From sequence record ON528743: a stretch of DNA of 64,000 nt, one strand, 5' to 3'. Source of the DNA: Shigella phage ESh33. Shown piece by piece: positions 3,425 through 58,374 of the stretch (within the stretch, counting starts at the first letter, position 1; every line of letters begins with the position of its first letter). Both the position numbers and the translations under genes were made by a program. The notes under the pieces were generated by a model. It searched no databases. It was not told the DNA's origin and worked only from the letters and a program-made list of their open reading frames with translations.

Positions 3425-4708
3425 TTATTCATCAATAATAATTTTTGGTAATTTAACACCTAATAAAACAGACAAATCTGAACGACCCGCCATTTTATCC
3501 ATGTCTCCACCGTCAATTATTCTTGCTTCTTTTTCATCTTTTGCTACGGTATAAGGATTTGCTGATAAAGCATATCTAACTAATAAACCAATAGACGGTT
3601 GTAAGCTTTCTGGATCAACAACAACTTTAAATGCACCTACATGTTCAGGGTCATCTAAGTCGAGACCTTCTGTATACGGAGCATAGAAAATTGATCCAAC
3701 AATTTCTTTTTCACCGATATTTTCTACTACACCAACGATTACATAATCTAATGGGCTGTTAGTATCGCAATAAAGCGGTAAACCATTAGCTAAGAATCCA
3801 TAGGCATTTTGTGAAAGATATTTATCATCTTCTGGTTTATGTTTTAACCAACCTGATGCAGCAAGAATCGCAGCGGCACGAGCAGAAGCAACACAGAACG
3901 TTGCTGTATAAGTTGATTCTTTTTGGATATGCGAAACCATTTCACACACCATTCGGTATAATGAACGACCAGCTTCAGGTGCAGATGCATAACTCAAATC
4001 AATGAATCCAGTATCAGTAATTCCTGTAACTTTATAGCGTTTTGACACTGTAATCAAAGACTGCAGAATATCTTTATTGATTTCATCTGCCATTTCGGTT
4101 GCAAGCAAATCTTCCAAGAAATTAGGAGCATCGAATCCATTTGCTTCTAAATCTTGTGCTAATTCAACTGTAATGCCAGTTTTAAGTTTACGAGATTTAA
4201 CTGCGGTTTGCCATTTATTAATCTGGAATCTAGCATCCGCAATTTCACTATCAGAGCTTTCAAATTTGCTTGTTGATGCTGCATCAGAAAATAGACGAAC
4301 CTTTAAAAGAACGATTGCAATCTGAAGAGCTAACTCTAAGTCGCTTTCTTCAATATCAGCAAATGGTGTATCTTCTAATACTTTATAAACGATATTATTA
4401 TATTTGAATAAATCGCCTTTATTGAGAGTTAATTTAGACTCTTCTGTTAATTCTGTGATTTGTTCTCGGTCTACATATCCAGCTTCGCCAGCATAAGTAG
4501 CACCAGTTTTAAATGTAAATTCATTGTCTGGGTTAAGGTATTTGATACCATAAAAAGCAGCAACAGGTTGATTAGTTCTTTGCGTTGCTACAATGTCAGA
4601 ATATATTAATTTAGTGGTAGCGCGAGTCAAAGCAACGAGATTTGGGCGACCGATTGAGTTGCTATTCGTTGTGGTTGATTCGCGCAGAAGTTCGTTGATT
4701 TTAGCCAT
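3425..4708 (-). CDS. 24: head vertex protein gp24
   Basis: 427 aa, capsid-fold paralog of gp23; T4 position and length. Confidence 0.9.
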   Translation of the reverse strand: MAKINELLRESTTTNSNSIGRPNLVALTRATTKLIYSDIVATQRTNQPVAAFYGIKYLNPDNEFTFKTGATYAGEAGYVDREQITELTEESKLTLNKGDLFKYNNIVYKVLEDTPFADIEESDLELALQIAIVLLKVRLFSDAASTSKFESSDSEIADARFQINKWQTAVKSRKLKTGITVELAQDLEANGFDAPNFLEDLLATEMADEINKDILQSLITVSKRYKVTGITDTGFIDLSYASAPEAGRSLYRMVCEMVSHIQKESTYTATFCVASARAAAILAASGWLKHKPEDDKYLSQNAYGFLANGLPLYCDTNSPLDYVIVGVVENIGEKEIVGSIFYAPYTEGLDLDDPEHVGAFKVVVDPESLQPSIGLLVRYALSANPYTVAKDEKEARIIDGGDMDKMAGRSDLSVLLGVKLPKIIIDE

Positions 4709-39235: not shown

Positions 39236-39308
39236 TGGGAATTAGCCAAGTTGGTAAGGCACTGGATTTTGATTCCAGGATGCAAAGGTTCGAGTCCTTT
39301 ATTCCCAG
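39236..39308 (+). tRNA. tRNA-Gln (anticodon UUG), no encoded CCA
   Basis: Cloverleaf by hand: acceptor TGGGAAT/ATTCCCA, anticodon loop TTTTGAT, T-arm GGTTCGAGTCC. Confidence 0.8.
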
Positions 39309-39309
39309 C

Positions 39310-39396
39310 GCGAGAATGGTCAAATTGGTAAAGGCACAGCACTTAAAATGCTGCGGAATGATTTCCTTGTGGGTTCGAGTCCCACTTCTCGCACCA
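39310..39396 (+). tRNA. tRNA-Leu (anticodon UAA), long variable arm, CCA encoded
   Basis: Acceptor GCGAGAA/TTCTCGC, anticodon loop CTTAAAA, T-arm GGGTTCGAGTCCC. Confidence 0.8.
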
Positions 39397-39401
39397 AATT
39401 T

Positions 39402-39475
<74 letters not shown>

Positions 39476-39485
39476 ATTTAATTTA

Positions 39486-39559
39486 CTCCGTGTAGCTCAG
39501 TTTGGTAGAGCGCCTGATTTGGGATCAGGAGGTCCAAGGTTCAAATCCTTGTATGGAGA
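39486..39559 (+). tRNA. tRNA-Pro (anticodon UGG), no encoded CCA
   Basis: Acceptor CTCCGTG/TATGGAG with G-U pairs, anticodon loop TTTGGGA, T-arm GGTTCAAATCC. Confidence 0.75.
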
Positions 39560-39561
39560 CT

Positions 39562-39651
39562 GGAGGCGTGGCAGAGTGGTTTAATGCACCGGTCTTGAAA
39601 ACCGGCAGTCGCTCCGGCGACTCATAGGTTCAAATCCTATCGCCTCCGCCA
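39562..39651 (+). tRNA. tRNA-Ser (anticodon UGA), long variable arm
   Basis: Acceptor GGAGGCG/CGCCTCC, anticodon loop CTTGAAA, T-arm GGTTCAAATCC, CCA encoded. Confidence 0.8.
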
Positions 39652-39656
39652 GTTTT

Positions 39657-39732
39657 GCTGATTTAGCTCAATAGGTAGAGCAACTCACTTGTAATGAGAA
39701 GGTCGGCGGTTCGATTCCGTCAATCAGCACCA
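39657..39732 (+). tRNA. tRNA-Thr (anticodon UGU)
   Basis: Acceptor GCTGATT/AATCAGC, anticodon loop CTTGTAA, T-arm GGTTCGATTCC, CCA encoded. Confidence 0.75.
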
Positions 39733-39733
39733 A

Positions 39734-39808
39734 GGCCCTGTAGCTGGAAGGTTCAAGCAAGCGACTCATAATCGCCAGATGGTGGTTCAATTCCACCCAG
39801 GGCCACCA
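39734..39808 (+). tRNA. tRNA with anticodon CAU (Ile2 if lysidine-modified, otherwise Met)
   Basis: Acceptor GGCCCTG/CAGGGCC, anticodon loop CTCATAA, T-arm GGTTCAATTCC, CCA encoded. Confidence 0.7.
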
Positions 39809-39814
39809 AATTAA

Positions 39815-39901
39815 GGGGAGTTATCCCGTAGAGGTAGCGGTGTGGACTGTAAATCCATTGTCATTGCGACTCGGGTGGTTCGACTCCATCACTCCCCACC
39901 A
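39815..39901 (+). tRNA. tRNA-Tyr (anticodon GUA), long variable arm
   Basis: Acceptor GGGGAGT/ACTCCCC, anticodon loop CTGTAAA, T-arm GGTTCGACTCC, CCA encoded; not among the eight T4 tRNAs as I recall them. Confidence 0.7.
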
Positions 39902-39905
39902 ATTT

Positions 39906-39980
39906 GGATGTGTAGCTCAATGGCAGAGCGATCGCCTGTTAAGCGATTGGTTATAGGTTCGAATCCTATCACGTCCGCCA
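39906..39980 (+). tRNA. tRNA-Asn (anticodon GUU)
   Basis: Acceptor GGATGTG/CACGTCC, anticodon loop CTGTTAA, T-arm GGTTCGAATCC, CCA encoded. Confidence 0.7.
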
Positions 39981-40094
39981 AATTTGTGACAACTGTCACA
40001 TTAATATCTACTTGACGCGATTATAGGGGTTGAACTGATCACTCTTCTCTTAATTTCGTGTGAAGACATCATGATTGTTGGAGTAGATATTAAT
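39981..40094 (+). ncRNA. 114-nt structured spacer inside the tRNA array; candidate small stable RNA or processing element
   Basis: No ORF; long-range inverted repeat CATTAATATCTAC (39998-40010) / GTAGATATTAATG (40083-40095) and local palindrome GTGACAACTGTCAC. Confidence 0.3.
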
Positions 40095-40170
40095 GTGGCC
40101 GTAGTTCAGTTGGTAGAACTCGAGATTGTGATTCTCGTAGTCATGGGTTCGACTCCCATCGGTCACCCCA
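40095..40170 (+). tRNA. tRNA-His (anticodon GUG); position -1 is T, so no encoded G-1
   Basis: Acceptor GTGGCCG/CGGTCAC, anticodon loop TTGTGAT, T-arm GGGTTCGACTCCC, CCA encoded. Confidence 0.7.
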
Positions 40171-40174
40171 ATTA

Positions 40175-40250
40175 CGGGGCATAGCTCAGAAGGAAGAGCA
40201 AGGACCTTCTAAGTCCTAGGTCGTAGGTTCGATCCCTACTGCCTCGACCA
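40175..40250 (+). tRNA. tRNA-Arg (anticodon UCU)
   Basis: Acceptor CGGGGCA/TGCCTCG, anticodon loop CTTCTAA, T-arm GGTTCGATCCC, CCA encoded. Confidence 0.75.
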
Positions 40251-53287: not shown

Positions 53288-53292
53288 CATTA

Positions 53293-53316
53293 GTCTCCTT
53301 CGGGAGACTTTTTCAT
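53293..53316 (+). terminator. intrinsic terminator
   Basis: AGTCTCC-TTCG-GGAGACT then TTTTTC. Confidence 0.7.
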
Positions 53317-54298: not shown

Positions 54299-54483
54299 TG
54301 ACAAGTGAGCAGGCTTTTAAATTAAGAGAATTAATTGAGACGTATAGTAAAGCTGTTCATACATCAACAATTATTGATGAATCAGCTTTCTCCGGACATG
54401 CTAACAAGATTAAATACAAAACTCTTATGGAAGAAGCTAAAGTAAATCTTGATTCTTATATTGAAACTTTAATTGGTAAATAA
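54298..54483 (+). CDS. small helical protein (61 aa), paralog family
   Basis: RBS GAGGAG; N-terminus MTSEQAFKLRELIE. Confidence 0.55.
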   Translation: MTSEQAFKLRELIETYSKAVHTSTIIDESAFSGHANKIKYKTLMEEAKVNLDSYIETLIGK

Positions 54484-54484
54484 T

Positions 54485-55027
54485 ATGAAAGCTGTAATTG
54501 AAACAACTGATTTGTTCGGTGACCTGGTTATCGAAAAACGTGATAATGTATACGTTCTGACGCAGGAAGACGATAGTATTACTATTCTTCCTATGGAACT
54601 GGCTGCGATTTTATCTTATGCTCCCTCAGGAGTTACCGGTGTAACTAATATTACAGGCGACCTCCAAGTTCGTTTTTATCGTGGCCTTTACGGCGGTAAT
54701 ATTGAAACTGAATTTATGTGTCTTTCTATCAACAATTGGGCAACATTCGTTGCCAAGGTGAAAGAATTCTTAGAATCTGAAACAGTCGAAACACCCGAAA
54801 AGGCTAAACTTCAATGGGCTAAAGATCGCGGTGCTAACATTATTAATCCAGTAGCTGCAAACTATACTACGACTTTGGATGTCAAGACTTCTTATGAAGA
54901 TGGCGATGTCGTACTTGTTCGCCAAAATGATGATTCTCGAGCACATATTGTCACATTTACCAAAGACGAAGCTATTGCGCTAAAGACTTATCTTGATTCT
55001 GTCATTCTAACTATGATTTCAAAGTGA
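54485..55027 (+). CDS. hypothetical protein (180 aa), paralog of 55034-55555
   Basis: ATG 54485; C-terminal FTKDEAIALKTYLDSV matches LSKSEAEAMIKYLTTV of next ORF. Confidence 0.55.
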   Translation: MKAVIETTDLFGDLVIEKRDNVYVLTQEDDSITILPMELAAILSYAPSGVTGVTNITGDLQVRFYRGLYGGNIETEFMCLSINNWATFVAKVKEFLESETVETPEKAKLQWAKDRGANIINPVAANYTTTLDVKTSYEDGDVVLVRQNDDSRAHIVTFTKDEAIALKTYLDSVILTMISK

Positions 55028-55033
55028 GGAAAT

Positions 55034-55555
55034 ATGTTTATTTCAAGTGGAAGTGGTTTAATTCGTGTTGAATTTAAAAATGACATCTTTCTTATTCAAG
55101 GAGATGATATTATTAAAATGAGTTATGACGAAATCAAGAAAATTTGTCATGCTCTTGAAAGTCATGGAAAAGTGAACGCTGTTATTGATATTGGCGATTT
55201 ATGGGTGACACTTTATGAAGTATCCGAAGGATTTAACATTGAAGATGAAAATAACATTTTAGCTATTGATAAAAGAAGTGATTTGTTTGATGTATTAAAA
55301 GTTTATGAACAGTCAAATGGCGGAAGAAAAGCTGCATTGATTTATCAAAAACCGCATTCATGTGGAACTGCTTCAATCATTTCAAATATTGAAGATGAAG
55401 TTGATACTTATATGTGTGTTTTAAAAGCTGGTGGTGACCGTCATCCGGATTTTATTTCTATTCGTCAAAACAATGGAGAAATTTCATTATCAAAATCAGA
55501 AGCTGAAGCTATGATTAAGTATTTAACAACTGTTACGCCTTCAATGAAAGGATAA
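55034..55555 (+). CDS. hypothetical protein (173 aa), paralog of 54485-55027
   Basis: RBS GTGAGGAAA; shared N- and C-terminal motifs with previous ORF. Confidence 0.55.
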   Translation: MFISSGSGLIRVEFKNDIFLIQGDDIIKMSYDEIKKICHALESHGKVNAVIDIGDLWVTLYEVSEGFNIEDENNILAIDKRSDLFDVLKVYEQSNGGRKAALIYQKPHSCGTASIISNIEDEVDTYMCVLKAGGDRHPDFISIRQNNGEISLSKSEAEAMIKYLTTVTPSMKG

Positions 55556-55557
55556 TT

Positions 55558-56019
55558 ATGATTATTAATGAAAACGCTTGGCACTATAAATTATTCAAAT
55601 TGTTTAACGATGAATGGCAACGACCTAAGACACTATGCGCATATTTTTGGTCTATTGCCATTCCTACATTTTTCGTTTCTATTTTTGGATGTGCTATACT
55701 CGTAGGGCTAACAATTATTTGTGCAGAAAGCCTACAACGTTGGCTTATTTTCGGTAGTTTATGGACTCTTATTCCATCAGCATTTATACTTGCCATTTTG
55801 TTTGTTTTACTTATTATTGGTTCATTTGTTATTCCTGCACAACTGCATGAAAAATATAAAGATTATAAATGGAAAAAGGATTATGCTTTACATGTAGAAA
55901 ATATTGATAGGGCGTATAAGGGTTTACCTCCTATTCAACCCAAGAAATCTATTATCGTCGAATTTTTAAAAGCGCGTAAAGCTAAAGTATGTCCTGTTAT
56001 TGAATATAAGGCTGAATGA
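55558..56019 (+). CDS. multi-pass membrane protein (153 aa)
   Basis: RBS AAAGGA; three or more hydrophobic helices; stop overlaps start of the nucleotidyltransferase-like gene. Confidence 0.6.
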   Translation: MIINENAWHYKLFKLFNDEWQRPKTLCAYFWSIAIPTFFVSIFGCAILVGLTIICAESLQRWLIFGSLWTLIPSAFILAILFVLLIIGSFVIPAQLHEKYKDYKWKKDYALHVENIDRAYKGLPPIQPKKSIIVEFLKARKAKVCPVIEYKAE

Positions 56020-57029
56020 TGAAAACAGTAATGAAAAGCTATTTTGGTAGTCATCTTTATGGAACTTCTACCCCAGAATCTGATGTAGATTTTAAAGAAA
56101 TCTTTGTTCCTCCTGCTCGTGATATTCTTATCGGAAATGTTAAAGAGCATATGAGTAAAAACACTAACAACACATCATCTAAAAACACTAAAGATGATAT
56201 TGACCATGAACTATACAGTCTTAAATATTTCTTTAAATTAGCAGCAGATGGTGAAACTGTAGCATTGGATATGCTCCACACTCCGCCGGAACTAGTGGTT
56301 AAATCTGATTTGCCTGATGTATGGAAATTTATCCAAGACAATCGTTCACGGTTTTATACAACTAACATGAAATCCTATTTAGGATATGTCCGCAAGCAAG
56401 CTTCTAAATACGGTGTCAAGGGTTCTCGTTTGGCCGCATTACGTGATGTATTGAAAGTAGTTAATCAAATCCCTGACCAGTGGGTCGACTATCAAGAAGG
56501 AATCCCTGATAGACTTCGTCGTACTAAGGTAGAAGATATCAAACACAGACTCCCTGAAAACGAGTTCTGTGAATGGGTGTTCCATAATCACGAGAAAACA
56601 GGCCCGCAAACGTTCTACACTGTGTTGGGTCGTAAATATCAGACAACACTTTCTCTTATTGAGCTTAAGCAGTCACTGAACAAATTAGATGCTGAATATG
56701 GTGAACGTGCTCGTAAAGCCGAAGCTAATGAAGGTATTGATTGGAAAGCTCTGAGTCATGCTTGTCGTGGTGGACTTCAACTATTGGAAATTTACAAAAC
56801 TGGTGACTTGATTTATCCACTCCAAGATGCTCCATTTATTCTCGACGTGAAGTTGGGTAAGCATCCATTTAAAACAGTTCAAGAGTTTTTGGAAGATGTG
56901 GTCGATCAAGTAGAAGCAGCATCTACTGAAGCTTCTAAGAACGGTATGCAGCAAAAAGTAGACATGAGTTTCTGGGATGACTTCCTTGAGAAGGTCTATC
57001 TTGAAAACCACCGAAGTTATTATAAATGA
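56016..57029 (+). CDS. nucleotidyltransferase-like protein (Pol-beta superfamily signature)
   Basis: 337 aa; N-terminal GSHLYGTSTPESDVDF fits G[SG]x(9-13)Dh[DE]h; third acidic residue candidate in VALDMLH; followed by terminator 57031-57058. Confidence 0.6.
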   Translation: MMKTVMKSYFGSHLYGTSTPESDVDFKEIFVPPARDILIGNVKEHMSKNTNNTSSKNTKDDIDHELYSLKYFFKLAADGETVALDMLHTPPELVVKSDLPDVWKFIQDNRSRFYTTNMKSYLGYVRKQASKYGVKGSRLAALRDVLKVVNQIPDQWVDYQEGIPDRLRRTKVEDIKHRLPENEFCEWVFHNHEKTGPQTFYTVLGRKYQTTLSLIELKQSLNKLDAEYGERARKAEANEGIDWKALSHACRGGLQLLEIYKTGDLIYPLQDAPFILDVKLGKHPFKTVQEFLEDVVDQVEAASTEASKNGMQQKVDMSFWDDFLEKVYLENHRSYYK

Positions 57030-57030
57030 T

Positions 57031-57058
57031 AGGGAGCCTTCGGGCTCCCTTTTTTATT
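57031..57058 (+). terminator. intrinsic terminator after the nucleotidyltransferase-like gene
   Basis: GGGAGCC-TTCG-GGCTCCC then TTTTTTATTT. Confidence 0.75.
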
Positions 57059-57080: not shown

Positions 57081-57109
57081 TTTACAAGCATAAAGCTTTA
57101 TGGTACTAT
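57081..57109 (+). promoter_or_regulatory. sigma70-like early promoter (cassette shared with 41648 promoter)
   Basis: TTTACA-17-TACTAT; 26-nt upstream block identical to 41630-41655. Confidence 0.6.
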
Positions 57110-57405: not shown

Positions 57406-58374
57406 ATGAAAACTGTAACTATCAATAAGGGTATCTACTTTGGCAAAGAAATCTCTGGAACTTTTGAGCTCTTAGGCGAATGGTTCCCAGATAATGCTCC
57501 GGTAGATGCGCAAGGAGATGGTAAAGTTTTTGTTGAAATTGACGGTAAACGTCGCGGTGTTTGGGTTTACAAATCAGACATTTCATATGATGGTGTAAAA
57601 GTTGAAGAAGTTAAAGAATCATATGAAGATATGAAAACCCGCATTAATAAAAGATTTAATGTTATGGGAATGATGACGAATGGTATTATTAACGGAAACA
57701 TTCGTTCATTAATTATCTCTGGTGCGGCGGGTATTGGTAAAACGTATTCTTTAGATAAAGCTTTAAATAAAGCAAATGATATTGGATACATTGAATATAA
57801 AAGCATTAACGGTAAAATCTCCGGTATCGGTCTTTATGAACAGCTTTGGAATAATCGTGAAGAGAATTCTGTCCTTTTGATTGATGATGTGGATGTTTTC
57901 TCTGATATGGACATTCTTAATCTTCTGAAAGCTGCTCTGGACACTGGAGAGACCCGTAAAGTCTGCTGGAGCACCGCATCTTCTTACTTAGAAGAAAAAG
58001 GCATTGAGCGTGAGTTTGAATTTAAAGGAACGATTGTTTTTATCACAAACGTTGACATTGACCGCGAATTAGACCGTGGTACTAAACTTGCTCCACATTT
58101 ACAAGCATTAGTGTCCCGCTCAGTTTATTTGGATTTGGGTGTTCACACTAATGAAGAAATTATGGTCAGGGTTGAAGATGTTATTCTTTCAACTGACATG
58201 ATGCAAAAGCGCGGTCTTTCTGATGAAGAAACTTATAAAGCATTATCATGGATGAAAGTCAATGTTAATCGTTTACGCAATGTTTCACTGCGTACTGCTC
58301 TTTATCTTGCTGACTTTATTATGACCGACAAAAATGGTTGGGAAGAAATTGCTGAGGTTACTCTTCTGAAATAA
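57406..58374 (+). CDS. AAA+-type ATPase of unknown function
   Basis: 322 aa; Walker A GAAGIGKT, Walker B LLIDDVD, sensor-like FITN; RBS AAAGGAG behind palindrome-flanked promoter 57350-57387. Confidence 0.65.
   Translation: MKTVTINKGIYFGKEISGTFELLGEWFPDNAPVDAQGDGKVFVEIDGKRRGVWVYKSDISYDGVKVEEVKESYEDMKTRINKRFNVMGMMTNGIINGNIRSLIISGAAGIGKTYSLDKALNKANDIGYIEYKSINGKISGIGLYEQLWNNREENSVLLIDDVDVFSDMDILNLLKAALDTGETRKVCWSTASSYLEEKGIEREFEFKGTIVFITNVDIDRELDRGTKLAPHLQALVSRSVYLDLGVHTNEEIMVRVEDVILSTDMMQKRGLSDEETYKALSWMKVNVNRLRNVSLRTALYLADFIMTDKNGWEEIAEVTLLK

Follow-up and report, generated by a model that had tools for sequence, protein, structure and literature searches.

Introduction

The first RNA-repair pathway came from bacteriophage T4, in which polynucleotide kinase (Pnk) and RNA ligase 1 (Rnl1) undo the cleavage of tRNA-Lys by PrrC. 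Here we analyse a 64,000-nucleotide stretch of DNA from Shigella phage ESh33 (sequence record ON528743; the whole stretch is called the window below) and, within it, a gene for a 337-residue protein that, judged by its sequence, is the ortholog of T4 nrdC.11 in a sister Tequatrovirus, and whose product is assigned to the RlaP family of Pol-beta-superfamily nucleotidyltransferases. An original prediction had paired this gene with an overlapping gene for a 153-residue membrane protein, and had seen in the two a membrane-associated nucleotidyltransferase unit that was a candidate for an undescribed host-takeover or anti-defence function.

Biochemically described relatives are the Pseudomonas enzymes PfRlaP (P. 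fluorescens) and PaRlaP (P. aeruginosa), which add one or two nucleoside monophosphates (NMPs) or deoxynucleoside monophosphates to the 3'-OH of RNA, prefer Mn2+, do not use DNA or protein as substrates, and, when offered a mimic of cleaved tRNA, favour its 5' half (PMC12776372). Pseudomonas RlaP also partly restores the aminoacylation of a tRNA without one anticodon-loop nucleotide, leaves E. coli proteins unlabelled, and labels rRNA- and tRNA-sized species broadly with little specificity for the nucleoside triphosphate (NTP), while the crystal structure of PfRlaP displays a nucleotidyltransferase domain and a helical domain with a cleft between them, the last helix being packed back (PMC12776372). 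In jumbo phages, the distribution of RlaP mirrors that of RNA ligases, and RlaP has been predicted to restore nucleotides removed by RloC-type nucleases prior to ligation (Iyer et al. 2021). The repair hypothesis has been published, in Carruthers et al. 2025 and, according to the citations in PMC12776372 and PMC7824862, in Burroughs and Aravind 2016.

The 337-residue protein is NrdC.11, a predicted RlaP-family nucleotidyltransferase

The 337-residue protein is 96% identical over 337 residues to T4 NrdC.11 (NP_049709.1), so the statement in the original prediction that it matches none of the T4 enzymes was wrong. The window belongs to a Tequatrovirus, the region shares 97% identity with phages BECP11 and KAW1E185, and its gene order is that of T4: tk, rI.1, rI, rI.-1, the mobD.x genes, the nrdC.11 ortholog and nrdC.10. 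This synteny with T4 and KAW1E185 bears out the placement of the gene after tk and rI.

The T4 gene carries the RefSeq label 'nucleotidyltransferase'; nrdC.11 orthologs were assigned to COG3541 in 2006, from which the nucleotidyltransferase prediction dates (PMC1524935); and T4NrdC.11 has been named as a PF10127/RlaP member in cluster 5 of a sequence similarity network (SSN) (PMC12776372, December 2025 preprint). Our searches returned a match to the Pfam RlaP profile (PF10127) over residues 7-136 that scores 44.7 bits, well over the gathering cut-off of 23 (E = 1.7e-11), a profile that is also matched by 120 of 121 diverse relatives, together with a match to PHROG 388, 'nucleotidyltransferase' (E = 4e-136). 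Searches against NCBIfam gave nothing above the cut-offs, PADLOC gave no match, phmmer against the PDB gave no match at E <= 10, and a search for a hydrophobic segment in the protein found none.

The gene is widespread, as tblastn detected nrdC.11 in 1517 phage records (Escherichia, Klebsiella, Acinetobacter, Aeromonas and Vibrio phages), and an exhaustive HMMER search yielded 3436 clusters at 50% identity, 822 of them at E <= 1e-30, nearly all full-length (310-350 residues). The claim of an undescribed function does not hold up, since the gene is already catalogued and its family has both a published activity and a published functional hypothesis, which makes the finding largely ordinary. The original prediction had named a characterised T4-family gene as the outcome that would speak against it, and what was found goes half of the way: the gene is catalogued and assigned to a family, with biochemistry that comes from the Pseudomonas relatives only.

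Conserved catalytic residues and predicted structure of NrdC.11

The protein starts with MMKTVMKSYFGSHLYGTSTPESDVDF, and its nucleotidyltransferase signature lies in ...FGSHLYGTSTPESDVDF, where G11-S12 is followed by ten residues and D23-V-D25. We counted conservation in a 121-member alignment, whose members are 34-55% identical to the query, and found G11, S12, Y132, K244, H248, R251 and P268 to be invariant. D23, D25 and D63 are each present in 120 members, D85 in 116 and D61 in 114. Conservation of the Gly-Ser and Asp residues at this level argues that the signature is not a chance match, and the Pol-beta signature read in the original prediction is thus upheld as near-invariant.

An AlphaFold2 model built with this alignment is confident, with a predicted local distance difference test score (pLDDT) of 94.2 and a predicted template-modelling score (pTM) of 0.83. 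The nucleotidyltransferase domain is modelled with strands at residues 3-10, 24-31, 45-49 and 62-68. The further acidic residue that had been pointed out in the motif VALDMLH, D85, is indeed conserved; in the model, however, it lies in a helix, whereas D61 and D63, equally or more conserved, are on strand 62-68. On the basis of the model, D61/D63 appear to fit the usual nucleotidyltransferase topology better than D85 as the third acid. The domain also contains an Asn/Thr/Ser-rich loop, MSKNTNNTSSKNTKDD (residues 46-63, window 56151-56204), at the end of which stands the motif K-N57-T ... D61-x-D63; this motif is almost without variation and could be the source of the third catalytic carboxylate instead of D85.

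Beyond this domain, the modelled long helix 119-150 bears a conserved patch of Q128, K131 (109/121), Y132, K135, G136 (113/121) and R138 (108/121). The beta-rich insert inside the helical domain, modelled with strands at 155-160, 163-169, 185-192, 196-203 and 206-209, is present in every one of the 121 subfamily members with a length of 37-73 residues, and the model ends in a long helix (317-336). We considered the C-terminal bundle as a HEPN RNase and rejected it, because the Rx4-6H motif is not conserved, occurring by chance in 34 of 121 members.

Structural neighbours of the nucleotidyltransferase domain are KNTase, HalB, 3c18, LinB and MNT, and the structure search of the AlphaFold2 model gave no match to cGAS, CD-NTase or OAS. 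The structural check proposed with the original prediction therefore returned the nucleotidyltransferase fold and MNT-type matches, and none of the CD-NTase or OAS type.

Some bacterial homologs of NrdC.11 neighbour RNA-repair genes

Genomic context was sampled in 80 bacterial and archaeal loci encoding full-length NrdC.11-like proteins of 32-54% identity, in which the neighbouring proteins were clustered and recurrent clusters were annotated with Pfam. The recurrent neighbours include RtcB (E = 2e-132), Hen1 (E = 3e-112), the ligase domain of Pnkp (E = 3e-178) and Ro60/TROVE (E = 5e-37), as well as a ResIII helicase. RtcB, Pnkp, Hen1 or Ro60 is found within 4 kb in 14 of the 80 loci, which ties the T4-type subfamily itself to RNA repair. 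The repair gene abuts the nucleotidyltransferase gene on the same strand in six loci, being Pnkp in L094, L100, L102 and L114, RtcB in L112 and Ro60 in L045. A modest new result is thus that bacterial linkage to RtcB, Pnkp-Hen1 and Ro60 holds for the NrdC.11-like subfamily as well as for RlaP of the Pseudomonas type.

In some bacteria, a Ro60/TROVE-vWA gene lies directly upstream of the NrdC.11-like gene (L045, 100-1617; L068, 1558-3180; L087, 1-1161), and in L068 it occurs together with RtcB and Hen1. These arrangements suggest composite Ro-RtcB-Hen1-RlaP islands for RNA quality control in bacteria.

The neighbourhoods also bear on the possibility that NrdC.11 is a transferase of the MNT/KNTase type whose substrate is a protein or a small molecule; it might, for example, neutralise a host HEPN RNase toxin by AMPylation, as MntA antitoxins do, or modify a metabolite. 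Such a transferase would agree with the structural matches to KNTase/ANT(4'), LinB, AadA and the MNT-HEPN complex, with HEPN domains among the matches for the C-terminal bundle, and with a weak match to MntA_antitoxin (E = 0.055). That last match, however, scores 13.4 bits where the cut-off is 60 and extends over the GS...D motif only, Pseudomonas RlaP does not label E. coli proteins (PMC12776372), and the subfamily has RNA ligases and end-healing enzymes, rather than HEPN toxins, as its gene neighbours. We consider a protein or small-molecule substrate quite improbable.

The membrane gene is not a conserved partner of nrdC.11

The 153-residue protein matches phrog_944 / phrog_22816 and is confined to enterobacterial phages of the T4 type (T-even-like). 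A search of 5.8 billion proteins yielded just 12 clusters of it, and several of these are truncated, e.g. in T2; comparison with Pfam, NCBIfam, PADLOC and, by phmmer at E <= 10, the PDB gave no match. It is hydrophobic, as had been noticed, with two long hydrophobic stretches (approximately residues 29-56 and 62-93) that leave room for two to four membrane passes, a range in which the three or more helices that had been read are a possibility only. W8, H9, C27, Y29, K143 and C145 are invariant, and P23 and P146 are also conserved. An AlphaFold2 model from six close sequences is unusable (pLDDT 64, pTM 0.26).

At the junction of the two open reading frames (ORFs), GAATGATGAAA, the ATG at 56016 overlaps the TGA stop of the membrane ORF (56017-56019) by four nucleotides, in agreement with the overlap reported in the original prediction. 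A second, in-frame ATG at 56019 overlaps the TGA by one nucleotide and gives a protein of 336 residues; this is the annotated start in T4 and KAW1E185 (coding sequence of 1011 nucleotides). Either start, 56016 or 56019, would permit translational coupling. A survey of the window with crude ORF calls found 76 same-strand junctions, among them five ATGA overlaps, four one-nucleotide overlaps, six other overlaps and 13 gaps of at most 15 nucleotides. Overlapping or abutting junctions are thus common here, and the ATGA overlap is weak evidence for a functional pair.

The strong terminator that had been taken to close a two-gene unit is present, as a hairpin (-17.7 kcal/mol, z = -3.6) with six G-C pairs in its 8-bp stem, a loop of UUCG and a T-run after it; however, the preceding terminator on the + strand is at 53292-53309, so the terminator-bounded unit comprises about ten genes, not two. 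The transcription unit probably starts after this preceding terminator.

Pairing was assessed in 78 phage loci and the 80 bacterial loci. The membrane gene abuts the nucleotidyltransferase gene in 13 of the 78 phage loci, in each of which the nucleotidyltransferase is at least 75% identical; it lies 31-2000 nucleotides upstream in 32, where a homing endonuclease or unrelated soluble ORFs separate the two, and it is absent in 33, T4 included. None of the 80 bacterial loci contains a homolog. Membrane-gene homologs occur in 816 phage records, whereas the nucleotidyltransferase is present in 1517. In T4, the HNH homing endonuclease mobD occupies the position of the membrane gene, of which there is no trace, and in loci without a membrane homolog the directly upstream gene is hydrophobic in only 1 of 27 phage and 2 of 42 bacterial cases. 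The membrane gene is consequently not an obligate partner of the nucleotidyltransferase and the pairing is not a conserved module, contrary to the idea of a membrane-associated unit; it is a separate accessory gene, adjacent in part of the T-even lineage only, and the arrangement reflects a lineage-specific gene order.

HNH homing endonucleases have repeatedly inserted at the upstream boundary of nrdC.11, the 56016 junction, examples being T4 mobD (L002, 12430-13209) and a 254-residue HNH-like ORF that sits between the membrane gene and nrdC.11 in L010 (3240-4004). In the T4-like phage L005 (IMG/VR 2974742932, 3820-4020), whose nucleotidyltransferase is 95% identical to the window protein, the genes from the mobD.1 paralogs through the membrane gene are missing and nrdC.11 directly follows a mobD.3-like ORF, so this stretch is freely lost.

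These distributions weigh on the proposal that the membrane protein and the nucleotidyltransferase form a two-gene module whose membrane-anchored nucleotidyltransferase, of CD-NTase/OAS-like type, makes or destroys a nucleotide second messenger, or nucleotidylates a host target, against defences of the CBASS, Thoeris or Pycsar type. The ATGA overlap and the presence of the membrane gene within 2 kb upstream in 45 of the 78 phage loci would be expected of such a module. We nevertheless regard it as extremely unlikely, given that direct abutment is confined to close relatives, that the membrane gene is missing from the phage and bacterial loci counted above, that homing endonucleases or soluble ORFs have been inserted between the genes with retention of the nucleotidyltransferase, and that membrane-gene variants are truncated in T2 and other phages. 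The nucleotidyltransferase itself, moreover, is without a hydrophobic segment, has no PADLOC match and has no structural match to cGAS, CD-NTase or OAS.

The structural match to HalB raises a related possibility, namely that NrdC.11 is a HalB-like synthase of DNA oligomers or an anti-Hailong decoy, alone or with the membrane protein. HalB was not found in the PDB by phmmer or by the family profile at E <= 10, and the membrane protein matched no PDB sequence, hence not HalA, a protein with a cryo-EM structure, provided that the HalA chain is in the PDB copy searched. A conserved C-terminal priming tyrosine is not seen, as only 77 of 121 members have Y328 and there is no conservation in the last residues; Pseudomonas RlaP enzymes refuse DNA acceptors (PMC12776372); and bacterial homologs adjoin RNA-repair genes, not membrane proteins. 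A Hailong-type function is, on this evidence, exceedingly improbable. We hold as extremely unlikely, too, the idea that in the T-even sub-lineage with overlapping genes NrdC.11 is recruited or regulated by the small membrane protein, and that the two together, as a phage counterpart or decoy of a defence that joins a nucleotidyltransferase to a membrane effector, such as Hailong, make an oligonucleotide which silences a host membrane effector, in place of a function in RNA repair.

A probable role for NrdC.11 in RNA repair

We consider it probable that NrdC.11 is a template-independent RNA 3'-end nucleotidyltransferase that restores nucleotides on cleaved tRNA before resealing by Pnk and Rnl1. 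The family membership, the fold, the conserved catalytic residues and the repair-gene linkage of the bacterial homologs form the basis established here, and from it we infer, by analogy with the Pseudomonas enzymes, the RNA 3'-OH activity and the tRNA-repair role of the phage enzyme. An NTP and two divalent metals (probably Mn2+) would be bound via G11-S12, D23, D25 and a third carboxylate (D61/D63 or D85), and one or two NMPs would be added, with no template, to the 3'-OH end of a cleaved RNA seated in the cleft between the nucleotidyltransferase domain and the helical domain bearing K244, H248 and R251. In vivo, the enzyme may put back nucleotides that RloC-type anticodon nucleases have removed from the tRNA of host or phage, after which phage Pnk and RNA ligase 1, whose genes lie in another part of the genome, would reseal a functional tRNA. 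The genome of the closest relative phage encodes polynucleotide kinase and RNA ligase 1, as does T4, so a ligase needing an RlaP-type 3'-OH end is available.

A number of observations weigh against this role. Within 4 kb, 66 of the 80 bacterial loci have no RNA-repair neighbour; near phage nrdC.11, an Rnl1-like gene lies within 6 kb in just 1 of 78 loci and no repair gene was found in the window; and in T4-type phages nrdC.11 is unlinked to pseT and rnlA. The Pfam match spans the nucleotidyltransferase half alone (residues 7-136, corresponding to profile positions 23-143 of 249), the beta-rich insert 152-212 of the NrdC.11 subfamily is unmentioned for PfRlaP, and the family profile produced only three chance-level matches in the PDB, to unrelated proteins (E 0.3-1.5). 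The T4 protein has been called an 'RlaP of unknown function', and the RNA-repair model was termed speculative by its authors (PMC12776372). Finally, T4 deletions spanning nrdC.11-mobD.3 are viable, meaning that the gene is dispensable on laboratory hosts and offers no phenotype to anchor a function; this dispensability fits a conditional, host-specific function.

The absence of linkage to pseT and rnlA in T4-type phages would also suit an RNA 3'-end nucleotidyltransferase with a purpose other than repair, which could tail host or phage RNA for decay or stability, or mend the 3' CCA of tRNA. This alternative shares the family and biochemistry of the repair role, and the broad labelling of rRNA- and tRNA-sized RNAs by Pseudomonas RlaP, with little NTP specificity, is in its favour (PMC12776372). 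Addition by those enzymes, however, ends at one or two nucleotides and favours the cleaved-tRNA mimic over a native 3' end (PMC12776372), the homologs abut RtcB, Pnkp-Hen1 and Ro60, and the jumbo-phage distribution of RlaP mirrors that of RNA ligases (Iyer et al. 2021). We therefore deem a non-repair purpose unlikely.

If the repair role is true, NrdC.11 would be a third enzyme completing the T4 Pnk/Rnl1 story, which would explain its retention in more than 1500 phage genomes. Since the repair hypothesis is already in print, the window adds confirmation rather than discovery.

Feature coordinates and neighbouring genes in the window

Coordinates of the two genes, their junction, the terminator and the segments of NrdC.11 are collected in Table 1.

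Table 1 Features of the nrdC.11 locus, in window positions; residue numbers refer to the 337-residue protein.
Feature	Position	Strand	Evidence
153-residue hydrophobic ORF	55558-56019	+	ORF list
337-residue nucleotidyltransferase ORF, nrdC.11 ortholog	56016-57029	+	ORF, T4 identity, Pfam RlaP, PHROG 388, AlphaFold2
ATGA start/stop overlap of the two ORFs	56016-56019	+	sequence; junction type common in window
Predicted N-terminal alpha/beta nucleotidyltransferase domain, approximately residues 1-115	56016-56360	+	Pfam, AlphaFold2, structure matches
G11-S12	56046-56051	+	conservation
D23-x-D25	56082-56090	+	conservation
D61-x-D63	56196-56204	+	conservation
D85	56268-56270	+	conservation
Predicted long helix, residues 119-150	56370-56465	+	AlphaFold2 model
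Predicted beta-rich insert, residues 152-212, inside helical domain	56469-56651	+	AlphaFold2 model
Predicted C-terminal helical bundle, residues 214-336, HEPN/KNTase-C-like	56655-57023	+	AlphaFold2 model
DWKAxSHAxR with invariant K244, H248, R251	56745-56768	+	alignment
Intrinsic terminator, hairpin 57031-57050 plus T-run	57031-57056	+	folding; KAW1E185 annotates terminator

Upstream of the membrane gene, the window contains tandem paralogs of T4 mobD.1 (54473-55027 and 55034-55555) with approximately 28% mutual identity, where T4 has a single copy; their Pfam domains are T4_y05I_N and T4_y05I_C, 'putative transcription factor'. Downstream of the terminator, the nrdC.10 ortholog (57406-58374), a protein of 322 residues with a Walker A motif GAAGIGKT, opens a new unit, with a sigma-70-like promoter upstream at 57081-57109. 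AAA/STAND-like Pfam matches of this protein are sub-threshold only, and PADLOC and NCBIfam gave no match. At a distance from the locus, a cluster of 11 tRNA genes lies at 39236-40250 (Gln, Leu, Gly, Pro, Ser, Thr, Met/Ile(CAT), Tyr, Asn, His and Arg), a set that is expanded by comparison with the eight tRNA genes of T4.

Comparison with known systems

Among the known systems with a similar fold, Hailong HalB (PDB 9dbh) has no detectable sequence similarity to NrdC.11. HalB is a host defence nucleotidyltransferase of 217 residues making an oligodeoxyadenylate that prevents the membrane channel HalA from opening. The primer of this synthesis is the hydroxyl of a HalB tyrosine, reportedly at the C-terminus, for which the NrdC.11 family has no conserved C-terminal equivalent, and in contrast to the DNA-making HalB, the neighbourhoods of the NrdC.11 family hold RNA-repair genes. 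The KNTase and MNT-HEPN minimal nucleotidyltransferases resemble NrdC.11 in that a nucleotidyltransferase domain is followed by a helical bundle; the matches are weak, however, and these enzymes differ in their substrates and share no sequence family with NrdC.11, which is without a conserved Rx4-6H motif. Membership in the CD-NTase/cGAS/OAS, Hailong HalB or MNT antitoxin/HEPN-MNT groups was accordingly not found.

T4 NrdC.11 shares with the window gene its position between the mobD.x genes and nrdC.10, as well as the terminator. The two loci differ directly upstream, where T4 has mobD (HNH) and the window has a second mobD.1 paralog followed by the 153-residue membrane gene.

Pseudomonas RlaP belongs to the same Pfam family, and its architecture, an N-terminal nucleotidyltransferase domain with GS and conserved Asp residues, a C-terminal helical domain and a cleft, may correspond to that of the AlphaFold2 model of NrdC.11, which we compared with the PfRlaP crystal structure by way of its published description. 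It differs in falling into SSN cluster 1a, against cluster 5 for T4NrdC.11 (PMC12776372); the Pfam RlaP profile aligns with the nucleotidyltransferase half of NrdC.11 only, and the insert 152-212 is extra relative to Pseudomonas RlaP. NrdC.11 nonetheless displays the RlaP profile match and the Pol-beta signature, and, although physical linkage to repair genes was seen in bacterial members and not in T4-type phages, some of those bacterial NrdC.11-like proteins sit, as does RlaP of the Pseudomonas type, in RtcB or Pnkp/Hen1 operons.

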